Below, piece after piece: positions 2,930 through 63,910 of a stretch of 64,000 nucleotides of DNA (the stretch's first letter is position 1; every line of letters begins with the position of its first letter). The stretch comes from an uncultured Acidobacteriaceae bacterium. Lineage in GTDB: Bacteria > Acidobacteriota > Terriglobia > Terriglobales > Acidobacteriaceae. The notes under the pieces were generated by a model. It saw only the letters and a program-made list of their open reading frames with translations, did not search any database and had not been told where the DNA came from. A program made the translations under genes and the position numbers. The DNA is taken from the NCBI GenBank assembly GCA_963707205.1, contig CAVPQE010000035.1:8164-72163 (forward strand). The letters are read 5' to 3'.

Positions 2930-3373
2930 CTAGGAGTTCAGTGAGAGGCGGTACGCCGCGTTAATTTGTCGGACCACATGCTCCACCGCGAGCTTCAATT
3001 CAGGCGAGACTTCGGTTCCATGTTCGAATCGCCGTCCCTCAATTCCGTATACTTGCAGTCGCTCTGGCAAACGGTCTAGAACTCGAGCCAGTCGGATTGC
3101 AGCCGATAAGCCCAGTCCATGGGTGGATGCAGATTGGTCAGTAGGGAAGCTCGCTTTTTCGCCGTCCCACAGCCACACCGTGCCAAGGGACGCACCTGTC
3201 TCCACTGAGTCCACCACGACAACGTCGTCAGCTCCGTACCAAGCTTCGATGAGTTCCAGGGCCTCCCCAGAGCGAATCTCAGCTTCTACGCCAAAGTCTC
3301 GCAGCCGCTCGGCCACCAACGCTCCAGCGCCGTCGTCGCCTCGCTCCGGATTTCCGCAGCAGATAATCCGCAT
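2930..3373 (-). CDS. NiFe-hydrogenase maturation endopeptidase
   Basis: 147 aa. N-terminal MRIICCGNPERGDDGAG motif typical of HyaD/HoxW-type proteases. Lies 3 nt downstream of the large-subunit gene. Confidence 0.85.
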   Translation of the reverse strand: MRIICCGNPERGDDGAGALVAERLRDFGVEAEIRSGEALELIEAWYGADDVVVVDSVETGASLGTVWLWDGEKASFPTDQSASTHGLGLSAAIRLARVLDRLPERLQVYGIEGRRFEHGTEVSPELKLAVEHVVRQINAAYRLSLNS

Positions 3374-3376
3374 GGA

Positions 3377-4687
3377 TCAGACTCCGTCAGCCTCCGCCCG
3401 CTCCACCGTGAGCTTTAGAGAGTGTGTGGCACAGGAGATGCAAGGGTCGTAGTTGCGAATAGCCTGCTCACACTTCCAACTTGCTTCTTCCAACGGCCAC
3501 GCCACTAATCGCATGGCGTAGTCGCGTAAGTCGTCCTCGATCCGTTTCTGGTTTTGCGATGTGGGCGGGATAATCCTGGCGGCGATGATCAGCCCTTTTT
3601 CGTCCATGGCGTAACGATGATAGAGAATGCCTCGGGGTGCCTCGGTAATCGCCTGACCTACCCCGGCCTGATTCGGTACCTCAACTCGCGGTACGGGAGG
3701 AGGTTCGTATTCGCCGATGATTCGTAATGCTTCAGCGCACGCAAACACAATTTCCACTGAGCGAACCATGATGCTACGGAACGGATTCTTCACGGGAACA
3801 GCAAGTTTGACTTCTCGGGCCACTTGCTGTGCTACTTCGGGCAGCTTATCGAAATTCAAATTGAAGCGCGCCATGGGTCCCACCAGATATGAACTTCTTC
3901 CACGCACGACCGAGTGTAGCGCGTTCGAATGCTTCACATGCATTTCGACAAAGTGATCCTCATACTCGGCTGCGTCAATGTCCAGACCTCGATTCGATAC
4001 CAGCCGCCCTTCGTTGAATGGATACTCATCAGGATGACGGAGAGCCACGAATTCATAGTCCTGCTCGAAATCGGGGAATTCCAGATTGGCCGTCCAACGC
4101 GCGGTTTCGAACGAAGCATCCAGCGCCCATTCCACGTCCTCCACTAGTTCGCGCAGTTGTTGCTTGGTGGGTACTTTGTAGAAGCCTCCGACTGCTGCCG
4201 AGATGGGATGAATCTCGCGGCCCCCGAGCAGCGTCACAATTCGGTTGCCGATCTTCTTCAACCGTAACGCTCGCTCGACTACGGCTCGATGGTCCCGGGC
4301 CATGGCAATGGCGTCCTGGTAGCCCAGAAAGTCCGGCGCGTGCAGCATGTAGACGTGCAAGGTGTGACTCTCAATCCATTCGCCGCAGTAGAACAGTCGG
4401 CGGAGGAGGCGCACGGCGGGATCGATGCGAGTTCCCAATGCGCGCTCGATCGCGTGAATCGCGCTCATCTGGTAAGCAATCGGACAGATCCCGCAGATGC
4501 GAGCGGTGATATCGGGAGCTTCGGAGAAATGACGCCCCCGAAGGAAGGCCTCGAAGAACCGCGGCGGCTCATAAATCCTAAGCTTCACGTCCGCCACACG
4601 TTCGCCCACGAGTTTAATGTACAAAGCTCCTTCCCCTTCCACCCGGGCCAATGTGTCCACGCGGATCGTTCTACTATGGCCGCTCAT
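3377..4687 (-). CDS. hyhL: NiFe hydrogenase large subunit, group 3b-like (HyhL)
   Basis: 436 aa. N-terminal RICGICP and C-terminal DPCISCATH Ni-Fe ligand motifs followed by a 14-aa cleavable tail. 4-nt overlap with the small-subunit gene. Operon partners are HydB/HydG-type subunits. Confidence 0.9.
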
Positions 4688-5472
4688 TTGCGCTCATACT
4701 CCTCGCTCGTCTTGCGGAACTGCCAGGACCAGGCGTTGAATCCCCGGAAGGCACGCGTGATCTGCGCATCCGATTGACCGAGGATGTGGAGTTGGGCAGC
4801 CAGTGACGGGGTGTTCGGACTCTCCATCGGCCCGTAGCAGCCGTAGCAGCCTCGATCATAGCTAGGACACAGTGCCCCACATCCCGCCTGCGTCACTGGA
4901 CCGAGGCAAGCAATGCCTCGCGCTACCGTGATGCAGACATTGTTTCTCCGCTTGCACTCCAGGCACACGCTATACGACGGAATGTTCGGCTTGCGCCCCA
5001 GGAGCGTCGCCGCGATCAGCTCGATCAAGTGATATTTGTTGATCGGGCAGCCGCGCAATTCGAAATCCACGGGAACGTGCTCGGCAATTGGAGTCGATAG
5101 CTTTAGGGTGCTGATGAATTGCGGGGTCGCATACACTACGCGAATGAATTCATCCACATCTTTCCAGTTACGCAATGCCTGGATGCCGCCTGCAGTCGCA
5201 CACGCGCCGATGGTAACCAGCGTCGTGCACTGCCGTCGCACCTCTTGGATGCGCTGCGCATCGTGATGAGTAGTAATGGAGCCCTCTACCAGTCCGATGT
5301 CATATGGACCCTTCAGCATGGCGCGCGATGCCTCCGGAAAATAGGCGATGTCGACCGCCCCGGCTACGCCGAGCAGTTCATCCTCGGCATCAAGCAAACT
5401 CAGCTGGCAGCCGTCACAGGACGCAAATTTGAAGACCGCGATCGTCGGTTTGTGCTTGGTATCAGAGTTCAT
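4684..5472 (-). CDS. hyhS: NiFe hydrogenase small subunit (HyhS, NuoB-like)
   Basis: 262 aa. NuoB/20-kDa-type proximal cluster cysteines ([19 protein letters not shown]) plus additional C-terminal Cys clusters. Confidence 0.85.
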
Positions 5473-6304
5473 ACTTTTCCAACAGGGTGCGGATGTTCTC
5501 GTAAGGAAAGACCGGCCCGTCCCTGCAAATAAAGTACGGTCCGTACTGACAGTGACCGCAGAATCCGATGGCGCACTTCATGTTGCGTTCCATAGAGAGA
5601 TAAATGTCCTCGCGCTTGAGCCCGTGGGTCTCCAGTTCGCGAGTGACAAAGCGCATCATGATCTCGGGGCCGCAAACCATCGCGATCGATCGCGCCGGCT
5701 GCAACCGGGCGTACTTAAACAGCGTCGTCACTACGCCCACGTGTCCGCGCCAACTCAACCCGCCATAGTCCACGGTGACCAGAACTTGTGTGTCTGGTTG
5801 ACGGGCCCAACTTGACAGTTCTCTGCGATACAGAAGATCACGAGGACTGCGCGAGCCGTAGAGCACCGTCAGACGCCCGTACTGCTTCCGATTGAGCAGG
5901 ACGTGGTAAATCACTGGACGAAGCGGGGCCAATCCGATTCCGCCAGCAACCACAATGACATCGTGCCCTCGGGCTGCCTCAATCGGCCAGCCCGTGCCGA
6001 ACGGGCCTCGGACGCCAATGCCGTCCCCGACTTTCTGACTCACCAGCGCATGGGTTGCCTGACCCACCGAGCGCACGGTATACACAAGCTGGTCCCGCTG
6101 CAAAGCCTGGCCGCTAATGGAGATGGGCAACTCGCCCACCCCGAATACCCACAACATGCTGAATTGGCCGGGCTGGAATAAGCTTCTATCATTTTCCTTC
6201 TCCGGCTCCAGTGTCAGGGTGAACGTGTCGGGCGTCTCCTTGGCGACCCCGCACACAACGTAGGGCTGCGAAACCATTGGCTCGGTTGTTGTCGTAAGAG
6301 TCAT
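5462..6304 (-). CDS. hyhG: hydrogenase gamma subunit, FAD/NAD(P)-binding with 2Fe-2S (HyhG)
   Basis: The track ORF extends to 6517, but the ATG at 6304 forms an ATGA overlap with the upstream stop. From there 280 aa with a PyrK/FNR-like fold ([10 protein letters not shown]) and C-terminal [10 protein letters not shown] 2Fe-2S motif. Confidence 0.85.
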
Positions 6305-6762
6305 CGCCCGACCGCGTAAACATCGAGCAACTGGAGACGAGTCGCGTCCAGCCGCTGCTCCATGATTTGAGCGAAGCGCTTCAGGATTTCGTAACCCAGA
6401 TCGTGGTTCTCTTCGCACTTGATACGCAAACACTTGCCGTCGAGGGCTATGGCGCGCGTATCCTCGGCAGCGCGGGCGTGGAACTTCCACTGAAAGGGCG
6501 GCAGCAGCCACGACCACCCCAGGATTTCTCCCACACTGAGCGTGGAAACGATGATCGGCTTGTGCTGGGGTGCCACGACTTCCACCGCCACCCTGCCCCC
6601 GCGAATCAGATAGAAGGTGTTGGCTGGGTCGCCCTCTTTCAAAATGTAGGTGCCGGCCTTGAAATGAACGTTGGAGGCGCAGCCCACCAGCAGCGCTATG
6701 AAGTCACGATCTAGACCGGTGAAGAAAGGATGCTCCGCGATGATGCGCTCAAGTGTTTCCAT
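6301..6762 (-). CDS. stand-alone cyclic-nucleotide-binding domain protein
   Basis: 153 aa. cNMP-binding beta-barrel signature (FYLIRGGRVAV, GEILGWSWL, RAAEDTRAIAL). No HTH or other output domain. Overlaps both flanking hydrogenase genes. Confidence 0.8.
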   Translation of the reverse strand: METLERIIAEHPFFTGLDRDFIALLVGCASNVHFKAGTYILKEGDPANTFYLIRGGRVAVEVVAPQHKPIIVSTLSVGEILGWSWLLPPFQWKFHARAAEDTRAIALDGKCLRIKCEENHDLGYEILKRFAQIMEQRLDATRLQLLDVYAVGR

Positions 6763-7897
6763 GATCGTTCCCCTCCCGTATAGCCCGAGCTTCCTCAGTG
6801 ATATCGATTCCTACTGGACACCAGGCAATGCAACGTCCGCAGCCTACACATCCCGAAGTGCCGAATTGATCGATCCACGAAGCCAGCTTGTGGGTCATCC
6901 ATTGACGATAGCGAGCTTTGCCGGAAGTGCGAACGTTGCCCCCGTGGATGTACGAAAAACTTAGCGTGAAGCACGAATCCCAACGGCGCCAGCGCTCGGC
7001 TTGATCGCTGCTCACGTAAGTCACGTCCTCGACCGCGGTGCAGAAGCAGGTGGGGCAAACCATGGTGCAGTTGGCGCACGTCAGGCAGCGGGCGGCGACG
7101 TTGTCCCAGCGTGGATGGTCGAAGTTCTGGTACAGCAGGTCTTTGATGCCGGCAGTGTCGATGCTTCGCATCTGCTCGACCGAGGCCCGCTCCACCGCAG
7201 CTTCTGCCTCTCGAAGATCGGCGTCGGCAGCCGGACCGGTCTGCAGATCAGCTAACACTTCGACGCCGCGATTGCTCCCCGTCTGCACGACAAATCGGTG
7301 GCCGCCCGGTCCGATAAGTTCCGTCAGAGCCAAGTCAAAACCGCTTTGCGCGCGCGGTCCCGTTCCCATCGAAGCACAAAAGCACGTGGCCGCCGACCGC
7401 GTGCATTGCACTGCCACGATGAACACATCTTGGCGTAGCCCCTCGTAAATTGCATCCCGATACTTATCGCCGATCAACACGCGATCCTGAAGCTTGATGG
7501 CTGCCAAGTCGCAGGCCCGGACTCCCAGGAGTGCGTATCGGTGCTTGGGTCGCATCTCATTGTTCAGAATTTGGAAGGTCCCGCCTCGACGTTCGGCCGA
7601 CCACAACCGCACTTCGGCCGGGTGTAGGTACCTCTTCCAGCTCTGGGGTCCCGCGGCATACCCGAACAAGGCCTGATCCTCGCGGCGCTTTAGCCGATAA
7701 CAGCCGCGTTCCTGTTCGTCGGTCCAGCCTGCGGGCAATTGCGCAGCCGACTCGATGCGCTCGTAGACAATTGCCCCGTCACGTACGATAGGGCCAATGG
7801 TCTCGTAGCCCTTGCACGACAACCTTTCGATTAGTTTCTGTAGCTGGTCTGCGTGCAGGATCCTGCGCTGTTCTTCGGCCACTGTGATCACTTCCAA
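6749..7897 (-). CDS. hyhB: hydrogenase beta subunit, FeS protein (HyhB / AsrA-like)
   Basis: 382 aa with Cys clusters [16 protein letters not shown] and [12 protein letters not shown]. Start is TTG at 7897 or GTG at 7891 (the latter has GAAGG about 9 nt upstream). Confidence 0.85.
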
Positions 7898-15220: not shown

Positions 15221-16443
15221 ATGACAACGCAACTCATAGAGAAACCCTTACGGACCGAGGACTTCGTCGAACTCGAGAATCAGTATGGTGCCCATAACTA
15301 TCGTCCGCTCGACGTGGTGATCGAGCGCGCGGAAGGCGTCTGGGTGTATGACGTTGAGGGCAAACGTTACCTCGATTGCCTGGCTGCGTATTCCGCGGTG
15401 AATCAGGGGCACTGCCATCCCAAGATTCTGCAGACTCTGGAGGAGCAGGCCCAGAAAGTCACTCTCACCTCGCGCGCCTTCCGCAACGAGCAATTGCCTC
15501 TGCTCTACAAGGAACTCCATGATTTGACCGGGTTCGACATGGTTCTGCCTATGAACTCAGGGCGCGGAGGCTGTCGAAACTGCGATCAAGACGGCTCGCA
15601 AGTGGGGTTACAAGATTAAGGGCATCCCCCAGGACAAAGCCGAGATTATTGTGTGCGCCAATAATTTTCATGGCCGCACCGTCACTATCGTGAGCTTCTC
15701 CACCGACGAACAATACCGCGATGGCTTCGGTCCCTTCACTCCGGGATTCAAAGTCATTCCCGTTCGGCGATGCGCGCGCCCTCCGCGAAGCCATCACTCC
15801 CAACACCTGCGCTTTTCTAGTGGAGCCCATTCAGGGCGAGGCGGGGATCGTCATTCCACCCAAGGGATTTCTCCGGGAAGCGGCGGCAATTTGCCGCGAG
15901 AATCAGGTATTGCTGATGGCCGACGAAATTCAATCCGGTCTGGGACGAACTGGCAAGCTCTTTGCCTACATGCACGATGCGGTCGTGCCCGACGTGTTGA
16001 TCATTGGCAAGGCGCTCGCTGGCGGGTTCTATCCGGTCTCGGCCGTATTGGCGTCTCGCGAGATTCTCGGCGTGTACAACCCTGGCGACCACGGAAGCAC
16101 CTTCGGCGGCAACCCCATGGGCTGCGCCATCGCCCGGACCGCGCTACGCGTCCTCATCGAGGAGAAGATGGTCGAACGTTCCGCCGAACTGGGCGCTTAT
16201 TTCCTGACTCTGCTGCGGACGCTGCGCAGTTCAGATTTGAAAGAGGTACGGGGCAAAGGTTTGTGGATCGGCATCGAACTCCGCAGCCCAGCGCGCCCCT
16301 ACTGCGAGGCGCTCAAGGAGGAAGGAATTCTGTGCAAGGAGACGCATGACCGCGTGATTCGCATCGCACCACCGCTCGTCATCAGTCGTCAGGAGATTGA
16401 CTGGGCCTTTGAGCGAATCGCGAAAGTGATTCAGCGGCATTGA
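15221..16443 (+). pseudogene. rocD: ornithine aminotransferase disrupted by two +1 frameshifts
   Basis: Three ORF pieces in frames 2, 0, 1 read continuously as an OAT: ...VLPMNSG | [40 protein letters not shown]...GFKVIP | [11 protein letters not shown]...EPIQGEAG.... The shifts are at the GGG run 15560..15562 and the CCC run 15759..15761. Length minus 2 nt gives 407 codons. Confidence 0.85.
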
Positions 16444-21754: not shown

Positions 21755-22177
21755 GGGATTACCTCCTCTTCTTGCCGTGAAGGACGATCACGGCGCGATG
21801 GCGCCCAAGGAGGGAGCCGGTGCATAAACAGAAGAATATTAACGAGCAGGATAAAGCTACTTCTCCAGGGTCTCCCCGTCTGTGACGGGCCGCACAGCGC
21901 TCCGTGCGTCTGTCCGTGTCCGGGTTGGAACGGTGGAACGGTGGAATCCTGCCACAGCACCTACTGACGGTGCGGCAGGCGGGTCGACATTCTCTCCATC
22001 GTGCGCTGGGACTGGTCCGTCCTGGCCTACGGATACTGACGGGCCTTCAGACGATCAACGTCGCAAATAGAATCGAACTCGGTGCTTGGTGTCACAGACA
22101 GCGATCTGCCAGGTGCGCAAACATGAAAGTGGCAGGATCGATGCGGAAAACACCCAACTTCGACCCAGGGGGTACAT

Positions 22178-22510
22178 ATGAGGAAAATCATCCTCTGCAC
22201 TCTGCTGGTCCTCTTCCTCTCGTCTGGGTCAGTAGAAGGTTTGGCACAGGAGAAGTCCTACATCACGGTAGAAGGAAATAAGGTTAGCAACGGCGTGGTG
22301 GTCGTGGACATCTTGAAAGCAGGCAAGACTTTCGCGCTGCAGTGCAACCAGGGGGCACCTGACTGTGCGGCCCTGAACAACGGTAAATATCAGATGGTTG
22401 AACTTCCTGAGAATCTCGGAATGTACGATTGTAAAGATGTCGAAGTTTATCCGGAGCAGACTAACAGTCCACAGAACAAACTCGGAGAGTACTGCCTGAT
22501 AGAAAAGTAA
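22178..22510 (+). CDS. small secreted protein
   Basis: 110 aa. Clear signal peptide MRKIILCTLLVLFLSSGSVEGLA. GGGGG/GGTA-type RBS region upstream. Confidence 0.6.
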   Translation: MRKIILCTLLVLFLSSGSVEGLAQEKSYITVEGNKVSNGVVVVDILKAGKTFALQCNQGAPDCAALNNGKYQMVELPENLGMYDCKDVEVYPEQTNSPQNKLGEYCLIEK

Positions 22511-22738
22511 AAGTAATGAGCAGGCAGCGATTAAGGCTGGGGCCGTACTGCCGTTACGCGGCGATGTGTTTGAGAACACGAGAGCTTGGTTTCTCCGAAG
22601 CTATGTTCTTCATGCGGTTTCGACCGGAGCACGACGCTACTCCCTTTCAAACCTGCCACGGCAGGGGAAACGGCAGCAGGGGCGATGATACTCCAAGGGG
22701 AGGCCCCCTGTGCTTTCTTTTGAAACCGGAGGCTGGCC

Positions 22739-22991
22739 ATGGGGAAATGTGACCCTCAAAATCCGAATCCCAGAGAATGGAGAGTCCTCTATCGGAAAAC
22801 GATTCTCGAGACAAGCAGGTCCACAATTGCGAAGGAACTCTCTGACGCGGAGAACGCGATCGTTGGTCGCAGGCGTCACCTCTTTCAGGACAGCGGAGCT
22901 GAAGTTGAACAAGAGAGAGGCTCTGAATGACGCCTTGTATGCTGTGGAAGCGCTCAGAATCGCCCTGGAGCTGAAGACCCGTGCGGCCTGA
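22739..22991 (+). pseudogene. small conserved-looking protein split by a +1 frameshift in a GA repeat
   Basis: Frame A ends ...HLFQDSGAEVEQERGSE*. Frame B continues ...REALNDALYAVEALRIALELKTRAA*. The junction lies in GAGAGAG at 22913..22919. Length minus 1 nt gives 84 codons. Confidence 0.4.
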
Positions 22992-23092
22992 GATACTTAC
23001 GCTCCGAGTGGGTGGGCCCTGAAAGCCGTCGCCGAGACATTCGACTCCCAAGAAGAGCAATGCCACGTCACTGACTCTGAGCCTTGCGCAGA

Positions 23093-23947
23093 TTATTCCT
23101 TTAGATCCACGTGCTGCACGTCTTCAATCGTATGCCCCAGAAATCGCTCGCCCAGCCGGCGAAACTTCTCCACCGAATCAGTGGCGAAGAACTTGAGTCG
23201 CGGAAGCGCGCGTCGTTCTTCGGCGTCTCCGGTCGCGGGCACCAGCTGCTGCAGGCGCGAAGCCACGGCGCGGGCGGTAGATTCAGCCGAGTCCACGACG
23301 CTCACATGTCCCGGCGTTATGCGATGCAGCAGCGGCTTAAGCAACGGATAGTGTGTGCAGCCTAAAACAAGGGTATCGGCATCGTGGAATCCGTCCGCGA
23401 AGGCCTCTGCAAGATAAATCCTTGCCACCTGCTCGGTGACGGCGTGATCCACCCATCCTTCTTCGACCAGCGGAACCAGCAGAGGACACGCCTTCTCCCG
23501 AGCGCTCAGGCCGCGAGCCTCGAGCGCTCGGCGGTAGGCGTGGCTGCTGACCGTAGCCTCCGTTCCAATCACCACAATTTTCTGATTCTTGGTAGCAGCG
23601 GCTGCGGCCTCCGCGCCCGGCTCAATCACTCCGACCACTGGGACATGAGCCGCCGACGTAATGCGATCCAGCGCCAGCGCCGTCGCTGTATTGCAGGCGA
23701 TCACCAGCATCTGCGCGCCATGCGATTCGAGATAGTGCGCCGCTTCCACGGCGTAGCGGGCCACGGTTTCGACCGATTTCGATCCGTAGGGCAGGCGCGC
23801 CGTATCGCCGAAGTAGGCGTAATCCGATCGCGGGATTAGCTCAAGTAAAGCTTTAAGGACAGTCAGCCCGCCAAACCCGGAGTCGAATACGCCAATGGTC
23901 GGACGACGTCGCGAACTTGGATCTCCCGCGCCGTGTTCAGCGCTCAT
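23093..23947 (-). CDS. murI: glutamate racemase
   Basis: 284 aa. GVFDSGFGGLTV, IACNTATA and LGCTHYPLL motifs. Confidence 0.9.
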   Translation of the reverse strand: MSAEHGAGDPSSRRRPTIGVFDSGFGGLTVLKALLELIPRSDYAYFGDTARLPYGSKSVETVARYAVEAAHYLESHGAQMLVIACNTATALALDRITSAAHVPVVGVIEPGAEAAAAATKNQKIVVIGTEATVSSHAYRRALEARGLSAREKACPLLVPLVEEGWVDHAVTEQVARIYLAEAFADGFHDADTLVLGCTHYPLLKPLLHRITPGHVSVVDSAESTARAVASRLQQLVPATGDAEERRALPRLKFFATDSVEKFRRLGERFLGHTIEDVQHVDLKE

Positions 23948-25208
23948 TCAGCTCTTCCCGAGTGAACTTACGACCAGGGCTCACAGTCTCTCTTAGCTTG
24001 GGAATCGGATGTTCCGCGCAGCATGGTCCCGGCGGAATCCGTGCCCCGTGCGGGCAAGTCCTCGGATGCCCGAGGAATGTGCAGATCTTGTCGGTCGCCT
24101 CCGGCGAAAGAATGTGCTCGAACTTGCAGGCCTGCTGCTCGATCTCCGATTCGCTGTCCATCGCCAGGCTGTCGGTAAAGAGCCGCTCGGCCAGCCGATG
24201 CCGGCGGATGATGCTACCCGCGCGCTCCCGCCCGCGTGGCGTGAGTTCGACAATCAGAGTGCCGTCGCCCAAAGACGCGGCCACCGGTTTCAGTGCCTCG
24301 TGGCAGGGATTCACGAACGGCTTGTGATCATGCGGCTGCGGCGGGTGGGGAGCCGAGACCACCAGCCCCATCTCGATCATCTTTTCAATGGCCAGGCTGA
24401 CCGGCAGCGCGCCGTGTACTTCCATGCGCTCGACTTCGGCGATCTCTTTATGCTCCTCCAGCACCCACAGCTCTTCCAGAACCTCGTCCAGTTGCTCCTC
24501 GTCGGCCATGGAGAACACTTCCTGCGACGCGATCTTGCCATGATGCAACTCGATCCGCCGGTCGGCCAGCCGCGCCACCACCGGATCGTGCGTGACCATC
24601 ACAATGGTGCGTCCCTGCTGATGAAATTCGCGCAGCAGCCGCAACACGATTTCCTCATTCAGTGCGTCCAGGTTCCCAGTGGGCTCGTCGGCCAGAATGA
24701 TGCGCGGATCATTAATCAGCGCGCGGGCAATGCACACCCGTTGCTGCTCCCCGCCGGACAACTGAGAAGGCAGGTGCTGAGCGCGGTCGCCCAGTCCCAC
24801 GCGGGCCAGCGCTTCGACCGCTTCTTTTTCGTCGGTCATGCTGTGGAAATACTGCGCGAGCATGACATTCTCGACGGCGGTGAGAAAGGGAATCAGGTGG
24901 AATTGCTGGAAGATGAATCCAATTTTTTCCGCGCGCACCCGGTTTAAGTTTGCGGCAGAGATCCCAGCCACATTCTGCCCGTCGAGCCAGATCTCGCCCG
25001 ACGAAGGCCGATCAAGGCAGCCAATCAGGTTCACCAGCGTCGACTTTCCCGATCCCGACGGCCCCATGATCGACAGCCATTCCCCCTGCGTGACGTGCAG
25101 CGAGATATGGTCGAGAGCATGAATGGAGCCGTTGTCTTTGCCCGCCCCTTTCCCGTTTCCCGCTTCTTTGGCGGGGTAGAGCTTGGTGACATCCTTGATC
25201 TGAATCAT
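23937..25208 (-). CDS. ABC transporter ATPase (MacB/LolD-like) fused to a DtxR/MntR-like metal-sensor domain
   Basis: 423 aa. Walker [10 protein letters not shown], signature LSGGEQQR, Walker B ILADEPT. Residues ~236-423 then carry [10 protein letters not shown]..., [25 protein letters not shown]..., [14 protein letters not shown]..., [15 protein letters not shown], typical of iron-dependent repressors. Confidence 0.85.
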
Positions 25209-25209
25209 T

Positions 25210-26367
25210 TCACTCTCCCCTCAGAATCACCGCCGGTTGCACTCGGCGCAGCAGCGAGATTGGGAGGATCGCCGACAACAACGTAACCGCCATGCTACCA
25301 GCCAGAACCACCGGCAGGACACTCAAACGCGGCACCACGGGAGCGTGAAAGTTAACCCTCCCGATCCACGCCGCAATGCCGATTCCGACCAGAAAACCGA
25401 TCAGCGCGCCAGTCGCCCCGAGCACAGCCGCCTCCGCGGCGAAGAATCCGTTCAGCAGCCGTCCTGACGCGCCCAGAGCCTTCATGATGGCGAAGTCGCG
25501 TCGCCGGTCGAATACCCATCCCATCAGCGTCGAAAGCACACACAGCGCCGCGGTAAGAATGATCAGCGACGCCGCGGCCAGCAGCGTCGCCCGTGTCTTG
25601 CCCAGCACGCGCGCTTCGCCCTCCATAATCTGCCGTACCGGGCGCACATCGCCAGCCGGAATCGCGTGTGCCACTTGGTTCATGATGCCGGCTATTTCTT
25701 CGGGAGAGCCGCTCGCCGCAATTTCAATCGTCGACGGTTGCACCCCGGTCCACGCCACGAAATCAGCTAGCGAGATGTAGATGCGGCTGTCTTCGGCCGC
25801 CCCCGTCTGCACCGTGCCCGCGGGACTCACGTGCAGAATCCGCCCTTGGAAGCTGAGATCGAATGTCTGACTCTTGGGCGCCACCGCCGGTCGTGCGCGC
25901 ACGCCGATCAGGGCCTGCTGCGGAGCAGACGGCCAGTTGCTCACCGACCACCAGCGATCGAGTTGACGCACCCGATCAAAGTCCGCGCCCGCCACCACAA
26001 TTGGCTGTCCGTCACTGGTGCGTGCGACCACCAGCCCAAACGGCGCCGCAATGCCGCGTCCCGCAAGAACAAAATCCACGCTCGCGAGCGCATCCGGGGA
26101 CAGGGAAGCGCCGTCCCTCCCTACCACGATAATATTCGCTCCATAGTTGCGAAACTCTCGCCGCAGCTTCGCCTGCACATCGACATAAAGATTCAGCATT
26201 GCTGTGGCCACCGCCGCCGCCACCACCATGGCGAACAGCGCCGCGGCAGCGCGTCCGCGCCGCAGCACCGCCGCTCGCACCAGCATCCGCAGGAACATCG
26301 AGGTATGCGGAGCATGTGCGCGGTTGGCGGCGAGATCTCGTGCGGAGTGTGACATGGGCGCGCTCAC
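25210..26367 (-). CDS. FtsX-domain ABC permease
   Basis: 385 aa. N-terminal TM, large periplasmic domain, three C-terminal TMs. GTGA overlap with the upstream gene (alternative ATG at 26355). Confidence 0.8.
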   Translation of the reverse strand: MSAPMSHSARDLAANRAHAPHTSMFLRMLVRAAVLRRGRAAAALFAMVVAAAVATAMLNLYVDVQAKLRREFRNYGANIIVVGRDGASLSPDALASVDFVLAGRGIAAPFGLVVARTSDGQPIVVAGADFDRVRQLDRWWSVSNWPSAPQQALIGVRARPAVAPKSQTFDLSFQGRILHVSPAGTVQTGAAEDSRIYISLADFVAWTGVQPSTIEIAASGSPEEIAGIMNQVAHAIPAGDVRPVRQIMEGEARVLGKTRATLLAAASLIILTAALCVLSTLMGWVFDRRRDFAIMKALGASGRLLNGFFAAEAAVLGATGALIGFLVGIGIAAWIGRVNFHAPVVPRLSVLPVVLAGSMAVTLLSAILPISLLRRVQPAVILRGE

Positions 26368-27629
26368 AGTTCCCCTCGCAGCGCAAACACCGGATCCAGA
26401 CCGACGGCGCGGCGAATGGCCGCAGCGCTTCCCGCGAACGTCACGATCACTGCGATCGCTAGGATCACCGGCAGCAGCACCGGTGAAATCGAAATATCCG
26501 AATTGAAGATCGAGTGCCCAATCTGGTGGGCGAGCACAGCGCCCACACCAAATCCCGCCAAGCCGCCGATCAACGCCAGCAGCGTGGCCTCCGCGAAAAA
26601 TATCGACGCGACGGCGAGTTTTCCCGCGCCCAGAGCCTTCATCAGTCCAACCTCGGCCCGGCGTTCAAAAATCGTAGTAGCCATCGCTGCCGACACAGCG
26701 AGTGCGGAGGCAAAAAGAGCGGCCAGGGTAATCAGGAATATGAGTCCTTCGATCCGCGTGAGAACCGCGCCCTCGTTTTGCGAAACCTGCCGAATCTGCT
26801 CGGCCTGCGAGTGCGGAATCGCCTCCGCCAGCTGAAACGCAATGGATTGCGGGTAAGGCGTGCAATACCAGCGGTCGTAGATCGCCCCCGACAGACTCTT
26901 GGGATCGCGACGTCCGAACGCATCTTCCGGCTTGGTCAACGCGCTAACATACACGCGCCGCACCGCGCCCGGCCTGCCTAGAATCTCCTGTGCCAGAGCA
27001 AGCGGGGCAACCACCTCATCGTCTTCAGCTCCGCCAGTGGAAAGAATTCCGCTCACCCGCACTCGGCGTCCAACCAGCGTGACTTCATCTCCCGACTTCT
27101 CACCCAACCGTGCGGCCAGCCTTTCCCCGAGTAAAACGTCCCGAGACGAATCCTCGGGCCATGCGCCAGAAACTTTCCACCACGGATGCGTGCTGCGTAC
27201 GCCGGTGGTGAACGCGTCCGTCCCGAAGGAAAGCTGCTTCGCAAAATAGGTCCCCAGCAGCGTGACATCCTGCCGCTTGCCGTTCTGTTCGATTGCCACA
27301 TTGACGGGAAGCATGGGCGCAAACCCTGTAATGTTGTTGTGCCAGAAAATCCCTTTGATTTTCGGCAGGTCCGATTCGCTGAGAAACGCCCCGTCGGTCG
27401 GAGGCTTCAGGTTGACGCCACCAATTTCCAGGTCAAGCGAATCTTCTTGTGGAGTTACAACCAGGTTGGCGCCAATGGTGCGCAGTTCGCGGTTGATCTT
27501 GTCGCCGATGTCGGTCGCCACGCCAATCATCGCCGTCGCGACAGTCACGCCCAGCGTAATCGCCGCGCCCGCCAGCAACTTGCGCCGCGTCTGGCGCCGG
27601 AAGGATTCGTAAACGAGCCGAACGAACAT
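26364..27629 (-). CDS. FtsX-domain ABC permease
   Basis: 421 aa. Same MacB-type topology. Paralogue of the downstream permease. Confidence 0.8.
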   Translation of the reverse strand: MFVRLVYESFRRQTRRKLLAGAAITLGVTVATAMIGVATDIGDKINRELRTIGANLVVTPQEDSLDLEIGGVNLKPPTDGAFLSESDLPKIKGIFWHNNITGFAPMLPVNVAIEQNGKRQDVTLLGTYFAKQLSFGTDAFTTGVRSTHPWWKVSGAWPEDSSRDVLLGERLAARLGEKSGDEVTLVGRRVRVSGILSTGGAEDDEVVAPLALAQEILGRPGAVRRVYVSALTKPEDAFGRRDPKSLSGAIYDRWYCTPYPQSIAFQLAEAIPHSQAEQIRQVSQNEGAVLTRIEGLIFLITLAALFASALAVSAAMATTIFERRAEVGLMKALGAGKLAVASIFFAEATLLALIGGLAGFGVGAVLAHQIGHSIFNSDISISPVLLPVILAIAVIVTFAGSAAAIRRAVGLDPVFALRGEL

Positions 27630-27632
27630 CGC

Positions 27633-28883
27633 TTACTGTTGTGCGAACATGCGACCGCCGGCCGCAACGTCCGCCTCCTGGATAATGACCGCGTCTGCCG
27701 TCTGCGTGGCCTTGAGCGGCACCGGATTGCAACCCCCGGCCCTGCCCACCGACTGCGGGTTAATCGGCGCGGCGCAATTCTTGCAGACCACTCCATTGGC
27801 GCTCTTGTAAAACCCGACCGATCCACAGATTTCGCAGGCGTCGAATACGGTTGCGATCTTACCGTCGGGCTTCTGATACAGCCAGAACCGGATCGCAGTC
27901 CCGTTCTCCGTCGCTTGAAAGCGATGCAGGTCGCCATCAGAAATCTGCGCCAGCGGAATACTCACCCGCCCGTTCGTAAACGTTACCTCGGTCGCTGGAG
28001 AAAGATTGCTGACGCTCTTGGCATACACAAATTCCGCCGTGATCAGGGCGATGAAGATGAACGAGAACGTGAGCACAGAAATCATCCACATGCGTTCGCG
28101 CCGGGCGCTCCACGCGGCCTTGCGGCGCTCCGCAGCCGACGCAGTGGCAAGCACGGGCTGACGCCGCTTGGCCTCGAACAGGATCATCAACGCCGCTAGC
28201 GCAAAAATGGTGACAAAGAAGAACCAGTCGTTGCTGACAATCGGGCCAATGATCGCCATCTCGCGCTTGGAAGATGCTATGACGCCGCTTTCCGAAAGCT
28301 CGTGCAGACCGGAAATCACCAACTGCGCCGCCACCAGGAACATGATCGCGGTCGTAATGCGGAAGAACTTCTGCAGGTTGATGCGCACGCTGCCCTTGAC
28401 GAACATCACGCCAAAGGCAATCGCGGCCAGCACGCCCAGCAGGGTGCCCAGAAAACTCATCAGTTCCGTGGAGTTCAAAGACACCGCGGAGAGAATCAGC
28501 ACCGTCTCCGCGCCTTCCCGCAGCACCATCAGAAAGATGAAGACGAACAGCCCAAACCAGGCGTCGTTGCCCGCCAGCAGCCCGACCTTGCCCTCGATGT
28601 CGCCCTTCATCTTGCGCCCCGTCTTCATCATGAAAATCACCATGGTGACGACGAAGAAGGCAGCCACCAGCATGATCCAGCCTTCGAACACATCTTCGTT
28701 CAGGTGAGTGCGGGAGATGACCACCGCCACGCCGATGCTGCCGAGGAAAGCTGCGATCAGCGCTGCGTACACGGTCTTGCGCAGTTCCTGCCGCCCGATC
28801 TTGGTCAGATACGCCAGGGTGATGCCGACAATGAGCGCGGCCTCAACCCCTTCGCGGAGCGTAATGATGAAAGCCTGGAGCAT
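27633..28883 (-). CDS. FTR1/EfeU-family iron permease fused to a DUF2318-like Cys-rich domain
   Basis: 416 aa. Two REGxE motifs (REGVEAAL, REGAETVL) in a 7-TM region. An extra TM is followed by CEICGSVGFYKSANGVVCKNCAAPINP, matching DUF2318-type proteins. Confidence 0.85.
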   Translation of the reverse strand: MLQAFIITLREGVEAALIVGITLAYLTKIGRQELRKTVYAALIAAFLGSIGVAVVISRTHLNEDVFEGWIMLVAAFFVVTMVIFMMKTGRKMKGDIEGKVGLLAGNDAWFGLFVFIFLMVLREGAETVLILSAVSLNSTELMSFLGTLLGVLAAIAFGVMFVKGSVRINLQKFFRITTAIMFLVAAQLVISGLHELSESGVIASSKREMAIIGPIVSNDWFFFVTIFALAALMILFEAKRRQPVLATASAAERRKAAWSARRERMWMISVLTFSFIFIALITAEFVYAKSVSNLSPATEVTFTNGRVSIPLAQISDGDLHRFQATENGTAIRFWLYQKPDGKIATVFDACEICGSVGFYKSANGVVCKNCAAPINPQSVGRAGGCNPVPLKATQTADAVIIQEADVAAGGRMFAQQ

Positions 28884-28898
28884 TTAATGATACCGTAT

Positions 28899-28917
28899 GA
28901 TTTTGAAAATGAATTTC
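28899..28917. promoter_or_regulatory. Fur-box-like AT-rich element
   Basis: GATTTTGAAAATGAATTTC matches 13 of 19 positions of GATAATGATAATCATTATC. Lies 16-34 nt upstream of the FTR1 start, in the only AT-rich patch nearby. Confidence 0.3.
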
Positions 28918-29115
28918 AATTTCAACTTCAAGGATATCTCCGCCCCGCCAAAGCCGTCAATCCGCCACCTCACAACCGCCTGTGATTAGGATCACACTGT
29001 CGGAATACCGCCCTGAAATGCTTCTGGCTGCAGGGAAGGTCTTAAACTGTCGCACGCGCTGCAGTCGGACGTAGGAAGGCCAGGGCTCTGCCAGTTGGAT
29101 TCGTTCCGAGGTAGC

Positions 29116-30216
29116 TTAGGGTTGGGGCAGGGCGTTCTTGGGAGCTTTCGCCGTCAACTTCCGGATGACAAACTCTTGCAACAGATTGGCCATGGCAGTT
29201 TCGCCAATCTCGATTGCTGCGTTTTCGAACGTCAATCCCACTCCATTGCGATCTTGCGCCGGATAGTAGAGGTTTGAAATTCCGCCCGCCGCCAAGCTCC
29301 CGAGGAGATTCGAATAGTTTGCCTGCCAGCGCCCATTGTCTCCCTTACACATCACGGAATTCGCGATCGCATACACAATCCGGGACGGCGTGCTACCGCT
29401 TCCTTTGTAAAAATACCGCGGGTCTTGTTTAAGAAGCGATGGCAGTATGGCAGATCCGATGAACGTGCCCGCAACCGTGTCGGCATAACCAGCGCCGAAT
29501 CGTTTTCCATAACCTTCCGCGCCTTGCCCATATTCTCTGAAATGATTTTGCGCCTGCTCAACTCCCGCCGCGCCTCCGACGAATACAAAGGTGAATGGAT
29601 CCACCACCGTCTTCCAGGCGAGGTTGAACTTTTGCTTCGAGTTGAGAGGAACTGCATTGGGGATGTAGCTGACATAAAAATTTGGCAGGACGCCGAGCAC
29701 GCGCTGCTTTTCTTCAATCTTGACCTCCTCTTCTGCCACGTCCGTCTGAGAGACCCCGACTTCTATCTCAGAGACATTGGTAGCCACGGCCAACGCGACC
29801 TGCGGGATAACGTCGATCTCCCCCGAGCGCAGGATTCCAGAGGATGTTTGCGATTCGAAGCCCGCCGACATAATGGTGAGCTGAAACGGTCCCGGAGCGA
29901 TGTTGGCAAAGGAAAATTGCCCATCGCCGCCTGATCGCACCTCTTGGCTTAAGGATTGATCTTCGCTAGCACGAGTGAGCTTCACCTGGGCTCCCGCGAT
30001 GACAGCTCCACTTTGATCAACGACCGTTCCGCTGATGCTTCCCGACATTGGCGGACTGGGCAGGTGCTCGTTGCTTGAGGCGGCCCCACGCTGTGCCGGA
30101 CTATCTGTTGAACCAGGCACAGGTATTTCGCGAGGGCTCTGTCCCGGGCAGAACGAAGTCCAGCTCAGAATGACCAGCGCGAAAACTATGAGTTTAGACT
30201 TGAACTGGAGGGCCAT
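29116..30216 (-). CDS. secreted protein with carboxypeptidase-regulatory-like (CarboxypepD_reg) domain
   Basis: 366 aa. Signal peptide, then SISGTVVDQSGAVIAGAQVKL...GDGQFSFANIAPGPFQLTI. C-terminal half unassigned. Confidence 0.6.
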   Translation of the reverse strand: MALQFKSKLIVFALVILSWTSFCPGQSPREIPVPGSTDSPAQRGAASSNEHLPSPPMSGSISGTVVDQSGAVIAGAQVKLTRASEDQSLSQEVRSGGDGQFSFANIAPGPFQLTIMSAGFESQTSSGILRSGEIDVIPQVALAVATNVSEIEVGVSQTDVAEEEVKIEEKQRVLGVLPNFYVSYIPNAVPLNSKQKFNLAWKTVVDPFTFVFVGGAAGVEQAQNHFREYGQGAEGYGKRFGAGYADTVAGTFIGSAILPSLLKQDPRYFYKGSGSTPSRIVYAIANSVMCKGDNGRWQANYSNLLGSLAAGGISNLYYPAQDRNGVGLTFENAAIEIGETAMANLLQEFVIRKLTAKAPKNALPQP

Positions 30217-30400
30217 GAATGAATTAACTCAATCCTCTTTTCGTACTTCATCCAAATTCAGCAAAAGGTGATCCGATCCCGACTCTTCAGCAGACTGAAG
30301 GGGTGCAGCGCATCCCCTTCGCTGCCAATCTCAGCATGGCCCCGTTCTATTGTCCGGATTCCGCTCTACGAACTTTGATGCTTGATGTAAGGCGAACACC

Positions 30401-31087
30401 TTATAACCGCTTCAGAAACGTATTCGCTGCAGCGATGTGGGGGAACAACTTCTCCTCGGCCTGGAACTCCGCCGAGTGTACGCAGCGCCGGCTCCCTCGT
30501 AGCTTCACTGGATGCTTTAGATGCAGCATCTCGTGGTAAACGATGTATTCCAGCACATACGGCGGCACGGCGAAGTGGTCAAAGATGCGGCTGATGATGA
30601 TCGCATTGTGGGCCGGATCATAGTGGCCGAGAATGCGGCGAGTCTTGGTCTGGCTCCAGCTCATCTGCGGACGCGCCAACAGCCCATGAAAGAAGCGCGT
30701 ATTCAGTTGTTCAAAGATCGCGTCCAGGTCATAAAAGTGCCCGCGGGCCGGGCGCAACCGCTTGCGTCCGCGCATCTGCCGAACCAGGTGCGTCTTGCGC
30801 ACAATATCGTGGCTGGCGACATACTTGCGATAGCGCGCCGCCTGCCCGCGGTCGATCGGCCGCCGATACATCTTGGCCAGCAGAATATGCGCGATTGCCC
30901 GCAGGACTGCGTCCGGCGCTCCTTCCAGCAAATCCGAAAGCCGCACCAGCAGCCTGCCCTCCCGCAGCCGAATCGTGTTGTTGACGTTGGCGAAGGCAAA
31001 AAATTCGATCTTCAGCTCGGGAACGGCGGAGGCTGGGCGGAGTTCTTTGTATGTTTCCTGGAAGATTTCGAGCAGCCCTTCGCGCAC
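30401..31087 (-). CDS. SprT-like / DUF45-type zinc metalloprotease
   Basis: 228 aa. HEMLH zinc motif (IVYHEMLHLKH) near the C-terminus. Confidence 0.6.
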   Translation of the reverse strand: MREGLLEIFQETYKELRPASAVPELKIEFFAFANVNNTIRLREGRLLVRLSDLLEGAPDAVLRAIAHILLAKMYRRPIDRGQAARYRKYVASHDIVRKTHLVRQMRGRKRLRPARGHFYDLDAIFEQLNTRFFHGLLARPQMSWSQTKTRRILGHYDPAHNAIIISRIFDHFAVPPYVLEYIVYHEMLHLKHPVKLRGSRRCVHSAEFQAEEKLFPHIAAANTFLKRL

Positions 31088-47355: not shown

Positions 47356-47613
47356 ATGGCCATGACTTCGTTAAACATCTCGCTCCCCGAAGCCCTGAAA
47401 GAATACGTCGAAGGACAGGTTGCTTCCGGCGATTGGGGCACGCCCAGCGAGTACGTCCGCGAACTCATCCGTCAGGACAAAGAGCGCCGTCTCGGCGATC
47501 TCGAGCAAGAACTCATCGCCGCCGCCAAGGGACCGAAAATCGAAATCCCGTTGGCCGAAATCCGCCGCAAAGGCCTGATCCCCGCCCTCCGCGAGCGCGC
47601 CCGCCGCCGGTGA
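47356..47613 (+). CDS. parD: type II antitoxin, ParD/CopG ribbon-helix-helix family
   Basis: 85 aa. LNISLPEALKEYVEGQVASGDWGTPSEYVRELIRQD. 4-nt overlap with the toxin gene. Confidence 0.75.
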   Translation: MAMTSLNISLPEALKEYVEGQVASGDWGTPSEYVRELIRQDKERRLGDLEQELIAAAKGPKIEIPLAEIRRKGLIPALRERARRR

Positions 47614-47924
47614 AAAAACCTCGCCTTGTCCTCTCCGACTCGGCCATCGCCGACATCCTAGAGCAGGCCGACTGGTACCTTGGACAGTCTGGGCGGCCTC
47701 TGGCGCGGCGCTGGGAGAAGGCCGTCACGTCTGCCATCTCGTACGTGGTCACCCATCCCGCCGCCGGACCACTCTGCACATTCAAGTCCCCCGAACTCCG
47801 CGGCGTACGACGAACGGCGATTCCGGGATTTCCTAAGCATCTCCTCTTCTATCGGTTCGACGAAGCAGAAGTATTCGTCCTCCGCGTCGTGCACGGCGCG
47901 CGTGACTTAGAACGTCTTTTGTAG
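47610..47924 (+). CDS. parE: type II toxin, ParE/RelE family
   Basis: GTG start overlapping the antitoxin stop (GTGA); 104 aa. C-terminal HLLFYRFDEAEVFVLRVVHGARDL is typical of ParE. Confidence 0.75.
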   Translation: MKKPRLVLSDSAIADILEQADWYLGQSGRPLARRWEKAVTSAISYVVTHPAAGPLCTFKSPELRGVRRTAIPGFPKHLLFYRFDEAEVFVLRVVHGARDLERLL

Positions 47925-62759: not shown

Positions 62760-62788
62760 TTCCGACGCGGGGAAAGAGAATAGCTGCG

Positions 62789-63910
62789 ATGACCAAGACT
62801 CCCGAGGAGTGGCTGAACGAGGTTTCGTCGGAAAAGCCGCGTGGAATCTTCAAGCTCTTTCTCGGCTACGCGCCCGGGGTTGGCAAGACGTACAACATGC
62901 TGAGCGAGGCCATCCGCCGTGCCAGCCGCGGAGAAGACGTGGTCGTTGGCGTAGTGGAGAGCCATGGCCGCAAGGCGACCGCCGAACTGACCGGCAAACT
63001 CGAACGCGTACCGCCCCGGAAGCTCGAATACAAAGGCACAACTTTTGAAGAAATGGATGTGGACGCGATTCTTGCCCGCAAACCGGCGGTCGTGGTGGTC
63101 GACGAGTTGGCCCATACCAACATCGAGGGCAGCAAGCACGCCAAGCGGTATGAGGACGTCATGGAGCTGTTGGAGGCCAAGATCGATGTGCTCTCCACCA
63201 TGAACGTGCAGCACGTCGAGAGCGTCGGGCCGACCGTGCAGCAGATCACGGGCGTGCAGGTTCGAGAAACAGTTCCCGACTGGGTGATGCAGCGGGTGGA
63301 CGAAATCGTTCTCGCCGATTTGACGCCTCAGGCGCTGCAGAAACGTATGCAGCGCGGCGATATTTATCCCGTAGACCGCGCTCAGCGCGCGCTCTCGCAT
63401 TTCTTTCGGCCCGGCAATCTGATCGCATTGCGCGAACTGGCGCTGCGGCAGGTCACGGGAGTCGTTGACCGCAGTCTCGATGCATTTCTGGAAAAGGACG
63501 GGACGCAGCCGGCGCATACGGTGCGCGAGCGCATCGGCGTTTGTGTCAGTTCGAATCCCGCGGCACAGTATCTGATCGCCCGTGGCTCGCGCATGGCCGA
63601 GGCTATGGGCGGCGAGTTCTACGTTTTCTATGTTGATGTCGGCCGCGATACACGTCCGGAGGATCAGAAGACCTTGGCGGAGAACATTCGCTTCGCGGAG
63701 AATCTTGGGGCACGAGTGGTGCGCGGCTCCGGTCGTAGCATCGCAGATGGTCTTGCCCAACTGGTGCGCGAACACCACATAACGCAGGTAATCTTCGGGC
63801 GATCCGCGCGCACCGGCTGGCAACGATATCTATATTTATCGGCCATCCAGCGGTTTCTCCGCGAATCTCCCTCCGTCGATGTCCACATCGTTACCCAGGA
63901 GGCACACTGA
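62789..63910 (+). CDS. KdpD N-terminal sensor domain plus Usp domain as a separate protein
   Basis: Start at MTKTPEEW (62789); 373 aa. GIFKLFLGYAPGVGKTYNML P-loop typical of the KdpD N-terminal domain, then a Usp-like half (FYVFYVD...). Confidence 0.85.
   Translation: MTKTPEEWLNEVSSEKPRGIFKLFLGYAPGVGKTYNMLSEAIRRASRGEDVVVGVVESHGRKATAELTGKLERVPPRKLEYKGTTFEEMDVDAILARKPAVVVVDELAHTNIEGSKHAKRYEDVMELLEAKIDVLSTMNVQHVESVGPTVQQITGVQVRETVPDWVMQRVDEIVLADLTPQALQKRMQRGDIYPVDRAQRALSHFFRPGNLIALRELALRQVTGVVDRSLDAFLEKDGTQPAHTVRERIGVCVSSNPAAQYLIARGSRMAEAMGGEFYVFYVDVGRDTRPEDQKTLAENIRFAENLGARVVRGSGRSIADGLAQLVREHHITQVIFGRSARTGWQRYLYLSAIQRFLRESPSVDVHIVTQEAH

Follow-up and report, generated by a model that had tools for sequence, protein, structure and literature searches.

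A 64,000-nucleotide stretch of DNA from an uncultured Acidobacteriaceae bacterium (contig CAVPQE010000035.1; hereafter, the whole stretch is called the window) carries a four-gene operon that encodes an FTR1 permease fused to a DUF2318 domain (FTR1::DUF2318), a FetB-like and a FetC-like FtsX-type permease, and an ATP-binding cassette (ABC) ATPase fused to a DtxR/IdeR-like module (ATPase::DtxR). With modest confidence, we favor the reading that this operon represents the FetMP-FetABCDEF iron-uptake system in a compact acidobacterial form lacking P19, probably repressed by a Fur-type regulator and, in addition, gated post-translationally by metal. The arrangement is conserved in 80 species-level loci and in two further clades, which argues that it did not arise by chance. 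In public annotations, the products go by names such as 'Fe-S-containing protein', 'high-affinity iron transporter' and 'ATP-binding cassette domain-containing protein'.

Gene content and conservation of the operon

A preliminary description of this DNA had pointed to a parallel with Ftr1-P19-associated and FetMP systems. As a reference we used the canonical cluster on an Escherichia coli IncF plasmid, which comprises FetM, P19, FetA (with DUF2318 and YHS domains), FetB, FetC, FetD and a TlpA-like reductase, and phmmer and BLASTP comparisons with these plasmid-encoded Fet proteins established the parallel as real homology. The two domains predicted for the first gene are both supported by Pfam searches, which place FTR1 (PF03239; residues 1–200, E=2.3e-36) and the FtrD-like/DUF2318 domain (PF10080; residues 314–413, E=1.6e-29) in the same polypeptide; the NCBIfam EfeU model matches this protein at E=7.7e-44, below its curated cut-off. 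Residues 1–198 align with the FTR1 domain of E. coli FetM (29% identity, E=1e-18), and residues 241–414 with positions 230–401 of E. coli FetA, that is, with its last transmembrane (TM) helix and DUF2318 domain (32% identity, E=2e-26; both BLASTP). Judged by these alignments, the protein is a true chimera of FetM-type and FetA-type parts. Pfam detected neither a YHS domain nor a FetM-type N-terminal periplasmic domain in it.

Both REGxE motifs of the fusion protein (REGVE, residues 10–14; REGAE, residues 122–126) are invariant in 86 FTR1::DUF2318 sequences, as are all five cysteines of the DUF2318 domain (C350-x2-C353-x13-C367-x2-C370-x14-C385), whose spacing equals that of the CxxC-x13-CxxC-x14,15-C motif in Campylobacter jejuni 1651 (PMC6083913). 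The hydropathy profile displays eight hydrophobic TM segments, and the positive-inside rule predicts a periplasmic location for both the N-terminus and DUF2318, with the eighth TM helix returning the latter to that side. A plasmid-borne counterpart of the fusion was not encountered: in the collection searched, none of 977 matching records covers ≥80% of the FTR1::DUF2318 query. As an aside on the origin of FetA, neither BLASTP nor Pfam supported the idea that its membrane part is a degenerate FTR1. An hhalign match between residues 173–245 of the fusion protein (TM6–TM7) and FetA 151–225, of low per-column confidence and built on a thin profile, weakly hints that it could be an FTR1 remnant.

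The remaining three products complete an ABC machine. By phmmer, the FetB-like permease matches E. coli FetB at E=1.6e-91, the FetC-like permease matches FetC at E=4e-40 and the ATPase matches FetD at E=3.1e-82. Both permeases, described beforehand as FtsX permeases, carry MacB_PCD and FtsX domains (PF12704 and PF02687), although in the FetC-like protein only FtsX is clear and the MacB_PCD match is weak. The ATPase contains an ABC_tran domain (E=5.7e-36) and finds its best NCBIfam matches in MacB (3.8e-66), LolD (3.7e-61) and FtsE (6.1e-59). Walker A, the Q-loop, the LSGGEQQR signature, Walker B (D174-E175) and H207 are all invariant in the ATPase alignment, and with these motifs intact the enzyme is predicted to be catalytically competent. 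On this sequence evidence, the two permeases and the ATPase are orthologues of FetB, FetC and FetD and form an ABC machine of the MacB/LolCDE/FtsEX type. The tight packing of the genes likewise stands, all gaps and overlaps within the module (Table 1) being confirmed from the coordinates of the open reading frames (ORFs).

How widespread is this arrangement? A pattern scan with one genome per species returned 80 loci, all from Acidobacteriota and all close relatives (≥80% identity), and in each of these Sulfotelmatobacter-like loci the order FTR1::DUF2318, FetB, FetC, ATPase::DtxR is kept (80/80); in two loci, frameshifts make the first gene look split. The window itself stems from a Candidatus Sulfotelmatobacter-like acidobacterium, two of its proteins having exact copies deposited under this name. 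The same four genes recur in an Acidoferrum-like clade (4 loci with different flanks; 53–56% identity over the ATPase) and, in a Polarisedimenticolia-like clade from another class of the phylum, in every sufficiently long metagenome contig. Profiling of the neighborhood, which had been proposed as a check, thus recovered the module and both fusions throughout. As the gene set, the REGxE motifs and the five cysteines are kept across clades, the module behaves as a unit. It is also abundant, with thousands of near-identical protein clusters in peat and soil Acidobacteriota and at least 80 species-level genomes, and may represent a major iron-acquisition route in these dominant, rarely cultured soil bacteria.

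The partners that accompany FTR1 in canonical clusters were not found. With the E. coli plasmid proteins as queries, phmmer returned no match to P19 or to the TlpA-like, DsbA-like or NqrC-like (FMN-binding) proteins among the six-frame ORFs of the window, and Pfam scans of its roughly 60 ORFs revealed no P19, thioredoxin, Fur or DtxR gene, so that the reported lack of P19/FetP and thioredoxin-like genes holds for the full 64 kb. Extending the P19 search from the window to flanks of ±10 kb, we found no homologue near the module in the 80 species-level loci or in about 75 metagenome loci. A TlpA/thioredoxin-like gene occurs upstream of the module in only 2 of the 80 loci (L029:3951-5180, directly upstream, and L011:1758-2336), where it may be a remnant of the canonical redox partner or a re-acquired one.

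The DtxR/IdeR-like module of the ATPase

The preliminary description had credited the ATPase with a metal-repressor domain. That was correct and, if anything, too modest: beside ABC_tran, Fe_dep_repr_C (PF02742) matches residues 323–392 at E=8.4e-26, the last 191 residues of the protein match IdeR/DtxR chains in the PDB (IdeR 7b25, E=5e-14), and a profile of the module that includes free-standing relatives aligns with SloR 9–132, MntR 6–114 and IdeR 39–136. An AlphaFold2 model of these C-terminal 191 residues, based on a 149-sequence alignment, reached a predicted local distance difference test score (pLDDT) of 87 and a predicted template-modeling score of 0.81. Searched with Foldseek against the PDB, its top matches were all DtxR-family proteins, with template-modeling scores of 0.77–0.78 when normalized to two-domain IdeR. 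By sequence and model, the extension is a complete DtxR/IdeR two-domain core, composed of an acidic winged helix, a His/Pro-rich insert and a dimerization/metal-binding domain with a Cys4 motif; it has no SH3/FeoA-like third domain. In all 128 fused sequences examined, the module forms the C-terminal part of an ABC ATPase.

Is this core equipped to bind metal? Taking the DtxR ligand numbering to be established family knowledge and mapping it through the PDB sequence alignment, we find H79 at H337, E83 at E341, H98 at E357, C102 at C361, E105 at E364 and H106 at H365 of the ATPase. By hand alignment of helix 1, E242 corresponds to DtxR M10 and MntR D8, and E245 to MntR E11. Across the 128 distinct fused sequences, which stem from all three clades, these positions are invariant or exchanged for a ligand-competent residue, the H98 equivalent being E or H, save that 10 of them have Gln in place of H337. 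Classical DtxR has nothing equivalent to a further invariant set, C376, C385, C396, C397, H381 and H387. The ligands at the DtxR and MntR positions are of mixed type, combining the Fe-type Cys at DtxR position 102 with the acidic N-terminal ligands of the Mn type.

These ligands also speak to a simpler explanation of the fusion, namely that the DtxR-like extension is a constitutive dimerization device or scaffold, a relic of gene fusion that senses nothing, with regulation being purely transcriptional. Domain 2 of DtxR is indeed its dimerization domain, and ABC ATPases act as dimers. Yet the three clades share only about 45–55% identity in this module, and at this distance the six canonical and two N-terminal ligand positions are kept or remain ligand-competent, while the additional Cys4/His2 motif is invariant as well. 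Such conservation would not be expected of a mere scaffold, and we therefore consider this explanation unlikely.

A role in DNA binding fares no better. The winged helix carries a net charge of −14 here and of about −6 to −7 in the other two clades, and the DtxR residues Q43 and R50, which contact bases and phosphates, are replaced by Leu and Glu in a hand alignment. The DtxR helix-turn-helix (HTH) model PF01325 matches neither the ATPase nor any of its 149 closest relatives, 139 of which match PF02742 and 63 of which carry a FeoA domain. To judge from these sequence features, the DtxR-like module is probably not a DNA binder.

Several variations on this architecture were observed. The His/Pro-rich insertion (24261–24356, minus strand; residues about 285–316), some 30 residues between the putative recognition helix and the wing, is confined to the Sulfotelmatobacter-like clade and was modeled with low confidence; it may be an extra metal-binding loop. 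In ATPases of the Acidoferrum-like clade (P0275 and relatives), the nucleotide-binding domain is joined to the DtxR-like module by a linker rich in Cys, HGPSHPLNCPLVNTGDCC, which the ATPase of the window lacks. The nearest free-standing relatives (e.g., P0315, P0362 and P0376) form a subfamily that the DtxR HTH model does not match, with an N-terminal EELLExLW helix, the same Cys4/His2 motif and often a C-terminal FeoA domain; they may sense metals and have transporters, not DNA, as their targets. A search of 50%-representative sequences with the C-terminal piece returned mostly fragments and free-standing DtxR-like proteins but not the full-length representative of the family, and offers no basis for counting fusions.

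Putative promoter, palindrome and a proposed mechanism

A consensus scan of the 232-nt region upstream of the operon identified a promoter-like site, TTGACG and TATCCT at a spacing of 18 nt, and most of 79 related upstream regions conserve GGATTGAC-N17/18-TATCCT, which makes it a putative promoter of the module. The −10 hexamer is followed by an operator-like 23-bp palindrome, TTGAAATTGAAATTCATTTTCAA, with 20 of 23 positions self-complementary and the core TTGAAATT-C-ATTTTCAA. It is unique in the window (0 expected by chance). The exact 19-mer core is found once in 70 of 80 loci, and the 23-mer with ≤1 mismatch in 78 of 81 sources, always upstream of the four-gene operon; no other site with ≤5 mismatches exists in 1.6 Mb, and the flanking bases vary freely among the related upstream regions. 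The palindrome shares 14 of 19 positions, and the hexamer layout, with GATAATGATAATCATTATC, the E. coli Fur-box consensus. A search of positions 22000–30500 against Rfam for a riboswitch or leader returned nothing at E≤0.1.

The other clades provide a clue as to which regulator might act here. In 15 of 15 Polarisedimenticolia-like loci, the FTR1::DUF2318 gene is immediately preceded by a co-oriented gene of the Fur family. The product of this Fur-family gene matches PF01475 (E=2.6e-27) and, as best NCBIfam matches, three Fur models ahead of PerR and Zur, all below cut-off. The promoter of this fur gene has a conserved palindrome, ATTGAGACTsAGTCGCAAT, that overlaps the −10 hexamer, and in the Acidoferrum-like clade AGTTGCAAATGATTTACAACT follows TTGAC-N17-TAAACT. 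All three clades thus have 8-1-8 palindromes at the promoter, of the common form TTGnnAnT-N-AnTnnCAA. Together, these sequences suggest that a Fur-type repressor probably acts at the palindrome.

Could the DtxR-like domain itself still recognize this site, making the ATPase a membrane-tethered, metal-dependent autoregulator of its own operon? The full winged-helix fold is retained, the palindromic operator at the promoter is strongly conserved, operator and putative recognition helix both differ between clades as co-variation would predict, and neither a Fur nor a DtxR gene is located near the operon in the Sulfotelmatobacter-like clade. Nevertheless, we regard such autoregulation as highly improbable: besides the acidity of the winged helix, the Leu and Glu at the DNA-contact positions and the missing PF01325 match, the Polarisedimenticolia-like clade has a dedicated Fur-family gene within the operon, with the palindrome upstream of that very gene, and the operator has the hexamer architecture of a Fur box, unlike the IdeR/DtxR box.

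A different question is whether the metal is iron at all. The FTR1 family includes lead-uptake proteins, and the module might import, or respond to, another divalent metal (Mn, Zn, Co or Pb), employing a Fur paralogue of the Mur or Zur type and an MntR-like sensor. In keeping with this, acidic residues occupy the N-terminal ligand positions, as D8 and E11 do in MntR, no Fur equivalog model is matched above its curated cut-off by the Fur-family proteins of the third clade, and the operator is not a canonical Fur box. On the other hand, both REGxE motifs, which are typical of iron permeases, are invariant, the Cys at the position of DtxR C102 is a ligand of the Fe type, the adjacent regulator has three Fur models as its best NCBIfam matches, ahead of PerR and Zur, and every characterized homologue of the gene set serves iron acquisition (PMC6083913, PMC10783030). 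We consequently deem another metal quite unlikely.

Returning to the favored reading of an iron-uptake module under Fur-type and post-translational control, how might it work? Periplasmic iron would be handled by the Cys-rich DUF2318 domain directly above the permease, with DUF2318 replacing P19 as the partner. ATP hydrolysis by the FetBCD-like machine in the cytoplasm would drive a step in the periplasm via its MacB-like periplasmic domains, and the machine would not itself carry metal across the membrane. In metal-replete cells, a Fur-family repressor would bind the palindrome just after the −10 hexamer and switch transcription off, and the two DtxR-like domains of the ATPase dimer would dimerize upon binding Fe(II), or a related divalent metal, in the cytoplasm. 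The dimerized domains would restrain the nucleotide-binding domains, such that uptake would be off within seconds, a case of trans-inhibition as in MetNI or ModBC, only with a metalloregulator fold. With a DtxR fold attached to the ATPase, metal may feed back on an ABC motor directly and post-translationally, and we think that the pump probably senses the cytoplasmic metal level directly through this fold. In C. jejuni, the canonical system is required, gene by gene, for growth under iron limitation (PMC10783030, PMC6083913). A bolder proposal, that a DtxR/IdeR fold has moved from transcription onto a MacB-type motor where Fe(II) switches uptake off (or on), and that FTR1, DUF2318 and FetBCD are the minimal core of such systems, we put forward tentatively, as a possibility that we would rate below even chances.

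Several points weigh against the favored reading. The metal specificity, the sign of regulation (whether it inhibits or activates) and even the binding of metal to the fused domain are deduced from sequence, and, with a ligand set that is a hybrid of Fe and Mn types, iron is not proven as the metal. The geometry of a DtxR-like dimer beneath the nucleotide-binding domains is conjectural, a model of the full-length ATPase::DtxR protein from a 19-sequence alignment having reached a pLDDT of 41. The operator deviates from the classical Fur box at 5 of 19 positions, and no Fur gene is present in the window or near the module in the Sulfotelmatobacter-like clade. A P19 gene could reside elsewhere in the carrier genomes, the search having covered the window and flanks. 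Finally, the functions of FetBCD and DUF2318 are mechanistically unsolved in FetMP-FetABCDEF/P19 systems, even in C. jejuni (PMC10783030).

Table 1. Positions of the module, its parts and associated features. Coordinates refer to the window unless a locus is named.
Feature	Position	Strand	Details
Four-gene module	23937-28883	(-)	murI follows as fifth co-oriented ORF
FTR1::DUF2318 fusion gene	27633-28883	(-)	416 aa; ORF list and Pfam
FTR1 permease domain	28284-28883	(-)	Pfam match, residues 1-200; TM7 helix reaches about residue 240
Periplasmic DUF2318/FtrD-like domain	27645-27944	(-)	residues 314-413, Pfam
FetB-like MacB/FtsX-type permease gene	26364-27629	(-)	421 aa; 3-nt gap from FTR1::DUF2318 gene
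FetC-like FtsX-type permease gene	25210-26367	(-)	385 aa; GTG start; 4-nt overlap with FetB-like gene
ABC ATPase::DtxR-like gene	23937-25208	(-)	423 aa; 1-nt gap from FetC-like gene
FetD-type ABC nucleotide-binding domain	24513-25208	(-)	residues 1-232
DtxR/IdeR-like two-domain module	23940-24512	(-)	residues 233-423
murI (glutamate racemase)	23093-23947	(-)	284 aa; overlaps ATPase stop by 11 nt
Promoter-like site	28931-28960	(-)	TTGACG, 18 nt, TATCCT
Operator-like 23-bp palindrome	28903-28925	(-)	starts 5 nt after -10 hexamer
GBBH-like_N genes, Acidoferrum-like clade	L082:11222-11614, L162:7222-7611, L163:7310-7699, L164:7222-7614		behind fused ATPase gene
Fur-family genes, Polarisedimenticolia-like clade	L087, L099, L103, L104, L111, L119-L121, L125, L127, L131, L135-L137, L140 (e.g. 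L136:5025-5522)	same as FTR1::DUF2318 gene	directly upstream of FTR1::DUF2318 gene

Neighboring features and relation to known systems

The operon had further been described as running into murI. The overlap with the ATPase gene is real, and the downstream ORF is a bona fide glutamate racemase gene (TIGR00067, 222 bits against a cut-off of 147), but the link is clade-specific and probably not functional: murI follows the module in about 75 of 80 Sulfotelmatobacter-like loci and does not adjoin it in the other two clades, and given this clade-specific position we reject it as a functional member. There is no terminator-like site between the two genes (overlap 23937–23947). In our terminator scan, sites were no commoner than in shuffled sequence. 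As it stands, an essential cell-wall gene would sit behind a probably metal-repressed promoter, and an internal promoter for murI inside the ATPase gene is likely. Upstream, a 366-aa CarboxypepD_reg protein (29116–30216) was considered as an outer-membrane partner and rejected, since just 3 of the 80 loci have it beside the module. The fused ATPase gene of the Acidoferrum-like clade is invariably followed by a small gene for a GBBH-like_N (PF06155) protein, which may belong to the module as its fifth member in that clade.

Elsewhere in the window, a class-III aminotransferase is split into two ORFs, 15221–15619 (+) and 15721–16443 (+), that cover profile positions 1–94 and 180–403, likely a pseudogene or an assembly error with the middle missing. 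Two halves of a KdpD-type sensor kinase are encoded on opposite strands, 61290–62759 (−) and 62693–63910 (+), diverging from an overlapping start region, one half with the KdpD N-terminal and Usp domains and the other with DUF4118, HisKA and HATPase. A P-type ATPase with YHS and HMBD metal-binding domains (247–2799, +) adjoins a NiFe-hydrogenase-like cluster (2930–7897, −) of maturation protease, large and small subunits, and NAD-binding and Fe-S subunits. Lastly, an ORF at 47433–47924 (+) has a ParE-toxin domain at residues 66–158; its N-terminal 65 residues may be an in-frame upstream antitoxin or reflect a wrong choice of start.

What does the module add to the picture of P19-type iron uptake? 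FetMP-FetABCDEF/P19 systems are widespread and important in pathogens. A fused permease::DUF2318 protein that does without P19, thioredoxins and YHS indicates what the obligatory core may be and suggests that DUF2318 acts right at the permease; P19 and the thioredoxins would then, if this is true, be accessories. The compact module would also be a simpler object for reconstitution and cryo-EM. In the literature searched (full text and a 2023 review of transporter regulation, PMC10710835), neither of the two fusions nor a DtxR-type ABC regulatory domain is described, and that review lists feedback on ABC motors for no importers other than those of methionine and molybdate, where the domains are unrelated.

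Compared to its closest relatives, the homologous FetMP-FetABCDEF clusters of C. jejuni (cj1658-cj1665/CJJ81176_1649-1656), E. coli IncF plasmids and Yersinia pestis, the operon of the window has in common an FTR1 with REGxE motifs, a five-Cys DUF2318, FetB, FetC and FetD in the same order, and likely control by Fur. The canonical systems, in contrast, include P19/FetP, a thioredoxin or FMN-binding partner and YHS, none of which the operon encodes, and the long N-terminal periplasmic domain of FetM is exclusively canonical. Their DUF2318 resides on a separate membrane protein, FetA, whereas here FTR1 stands where FetA has the first seven of its eight TM helices, and the ATPase is 423 aa long as against 231 aa for canonical FetD because of the DtxR-like module. 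With EfeUOB, FtrABCD of Bordetella and Brucella and the yeast Ftr1p-Fet3p pair, the operon shares the FTR1/EfeU-type permease. Those systems, however, lack an ABC machine and depend on a periplasmic partner made as a separate protein, be it an oxidase, a peroxidase or a cupredoxin/P19; in the operon of the window, the fused DUF2318 is the only periplasmic partner encoded.

As to its regulatory part, the ATPase module has the two-domain fold and the ligand positions of DtxR, IdeR and MntR, but is fused instead of being a free transcription factor, and differs in its acidic winged helix and the extra Cys4/His2 set. The placement of an additional C-terminal domain on the nucleotide-binding subunit is reminiscent of the trans-inhibited importers MetNI (C2 domain) and ModBC (regulatory domain of ModC), whose extra domain can dimerize and bind the imported species in the cytoplasm (PMC10710835), as the DtxR-like module could do as well. 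In contrast to these, the operon combines a DtxR-like fold with a machine of the MacB/FtsX type, not a type I importer, and the ABC part of this machine is probably not the substrate carrier. With MacB, LolCDE and FtsEX, the type VII systems that work by mechanotransmission, the machine has in common the four-helix FtsX permease and the MacB-like periplasmic core. No type VII member is known to carry a metal-sensor domain, and, if the bolder proposal made above is true, the module would be without precedent both as a trans-inhibition device with a DtxR fold and as a type VII ABC system gated by metal. What further sets it apart from MacB, LolCDE and FtsEX is that the machine is coupled to FTR1 and to a periplasmic domain rich in Cys.

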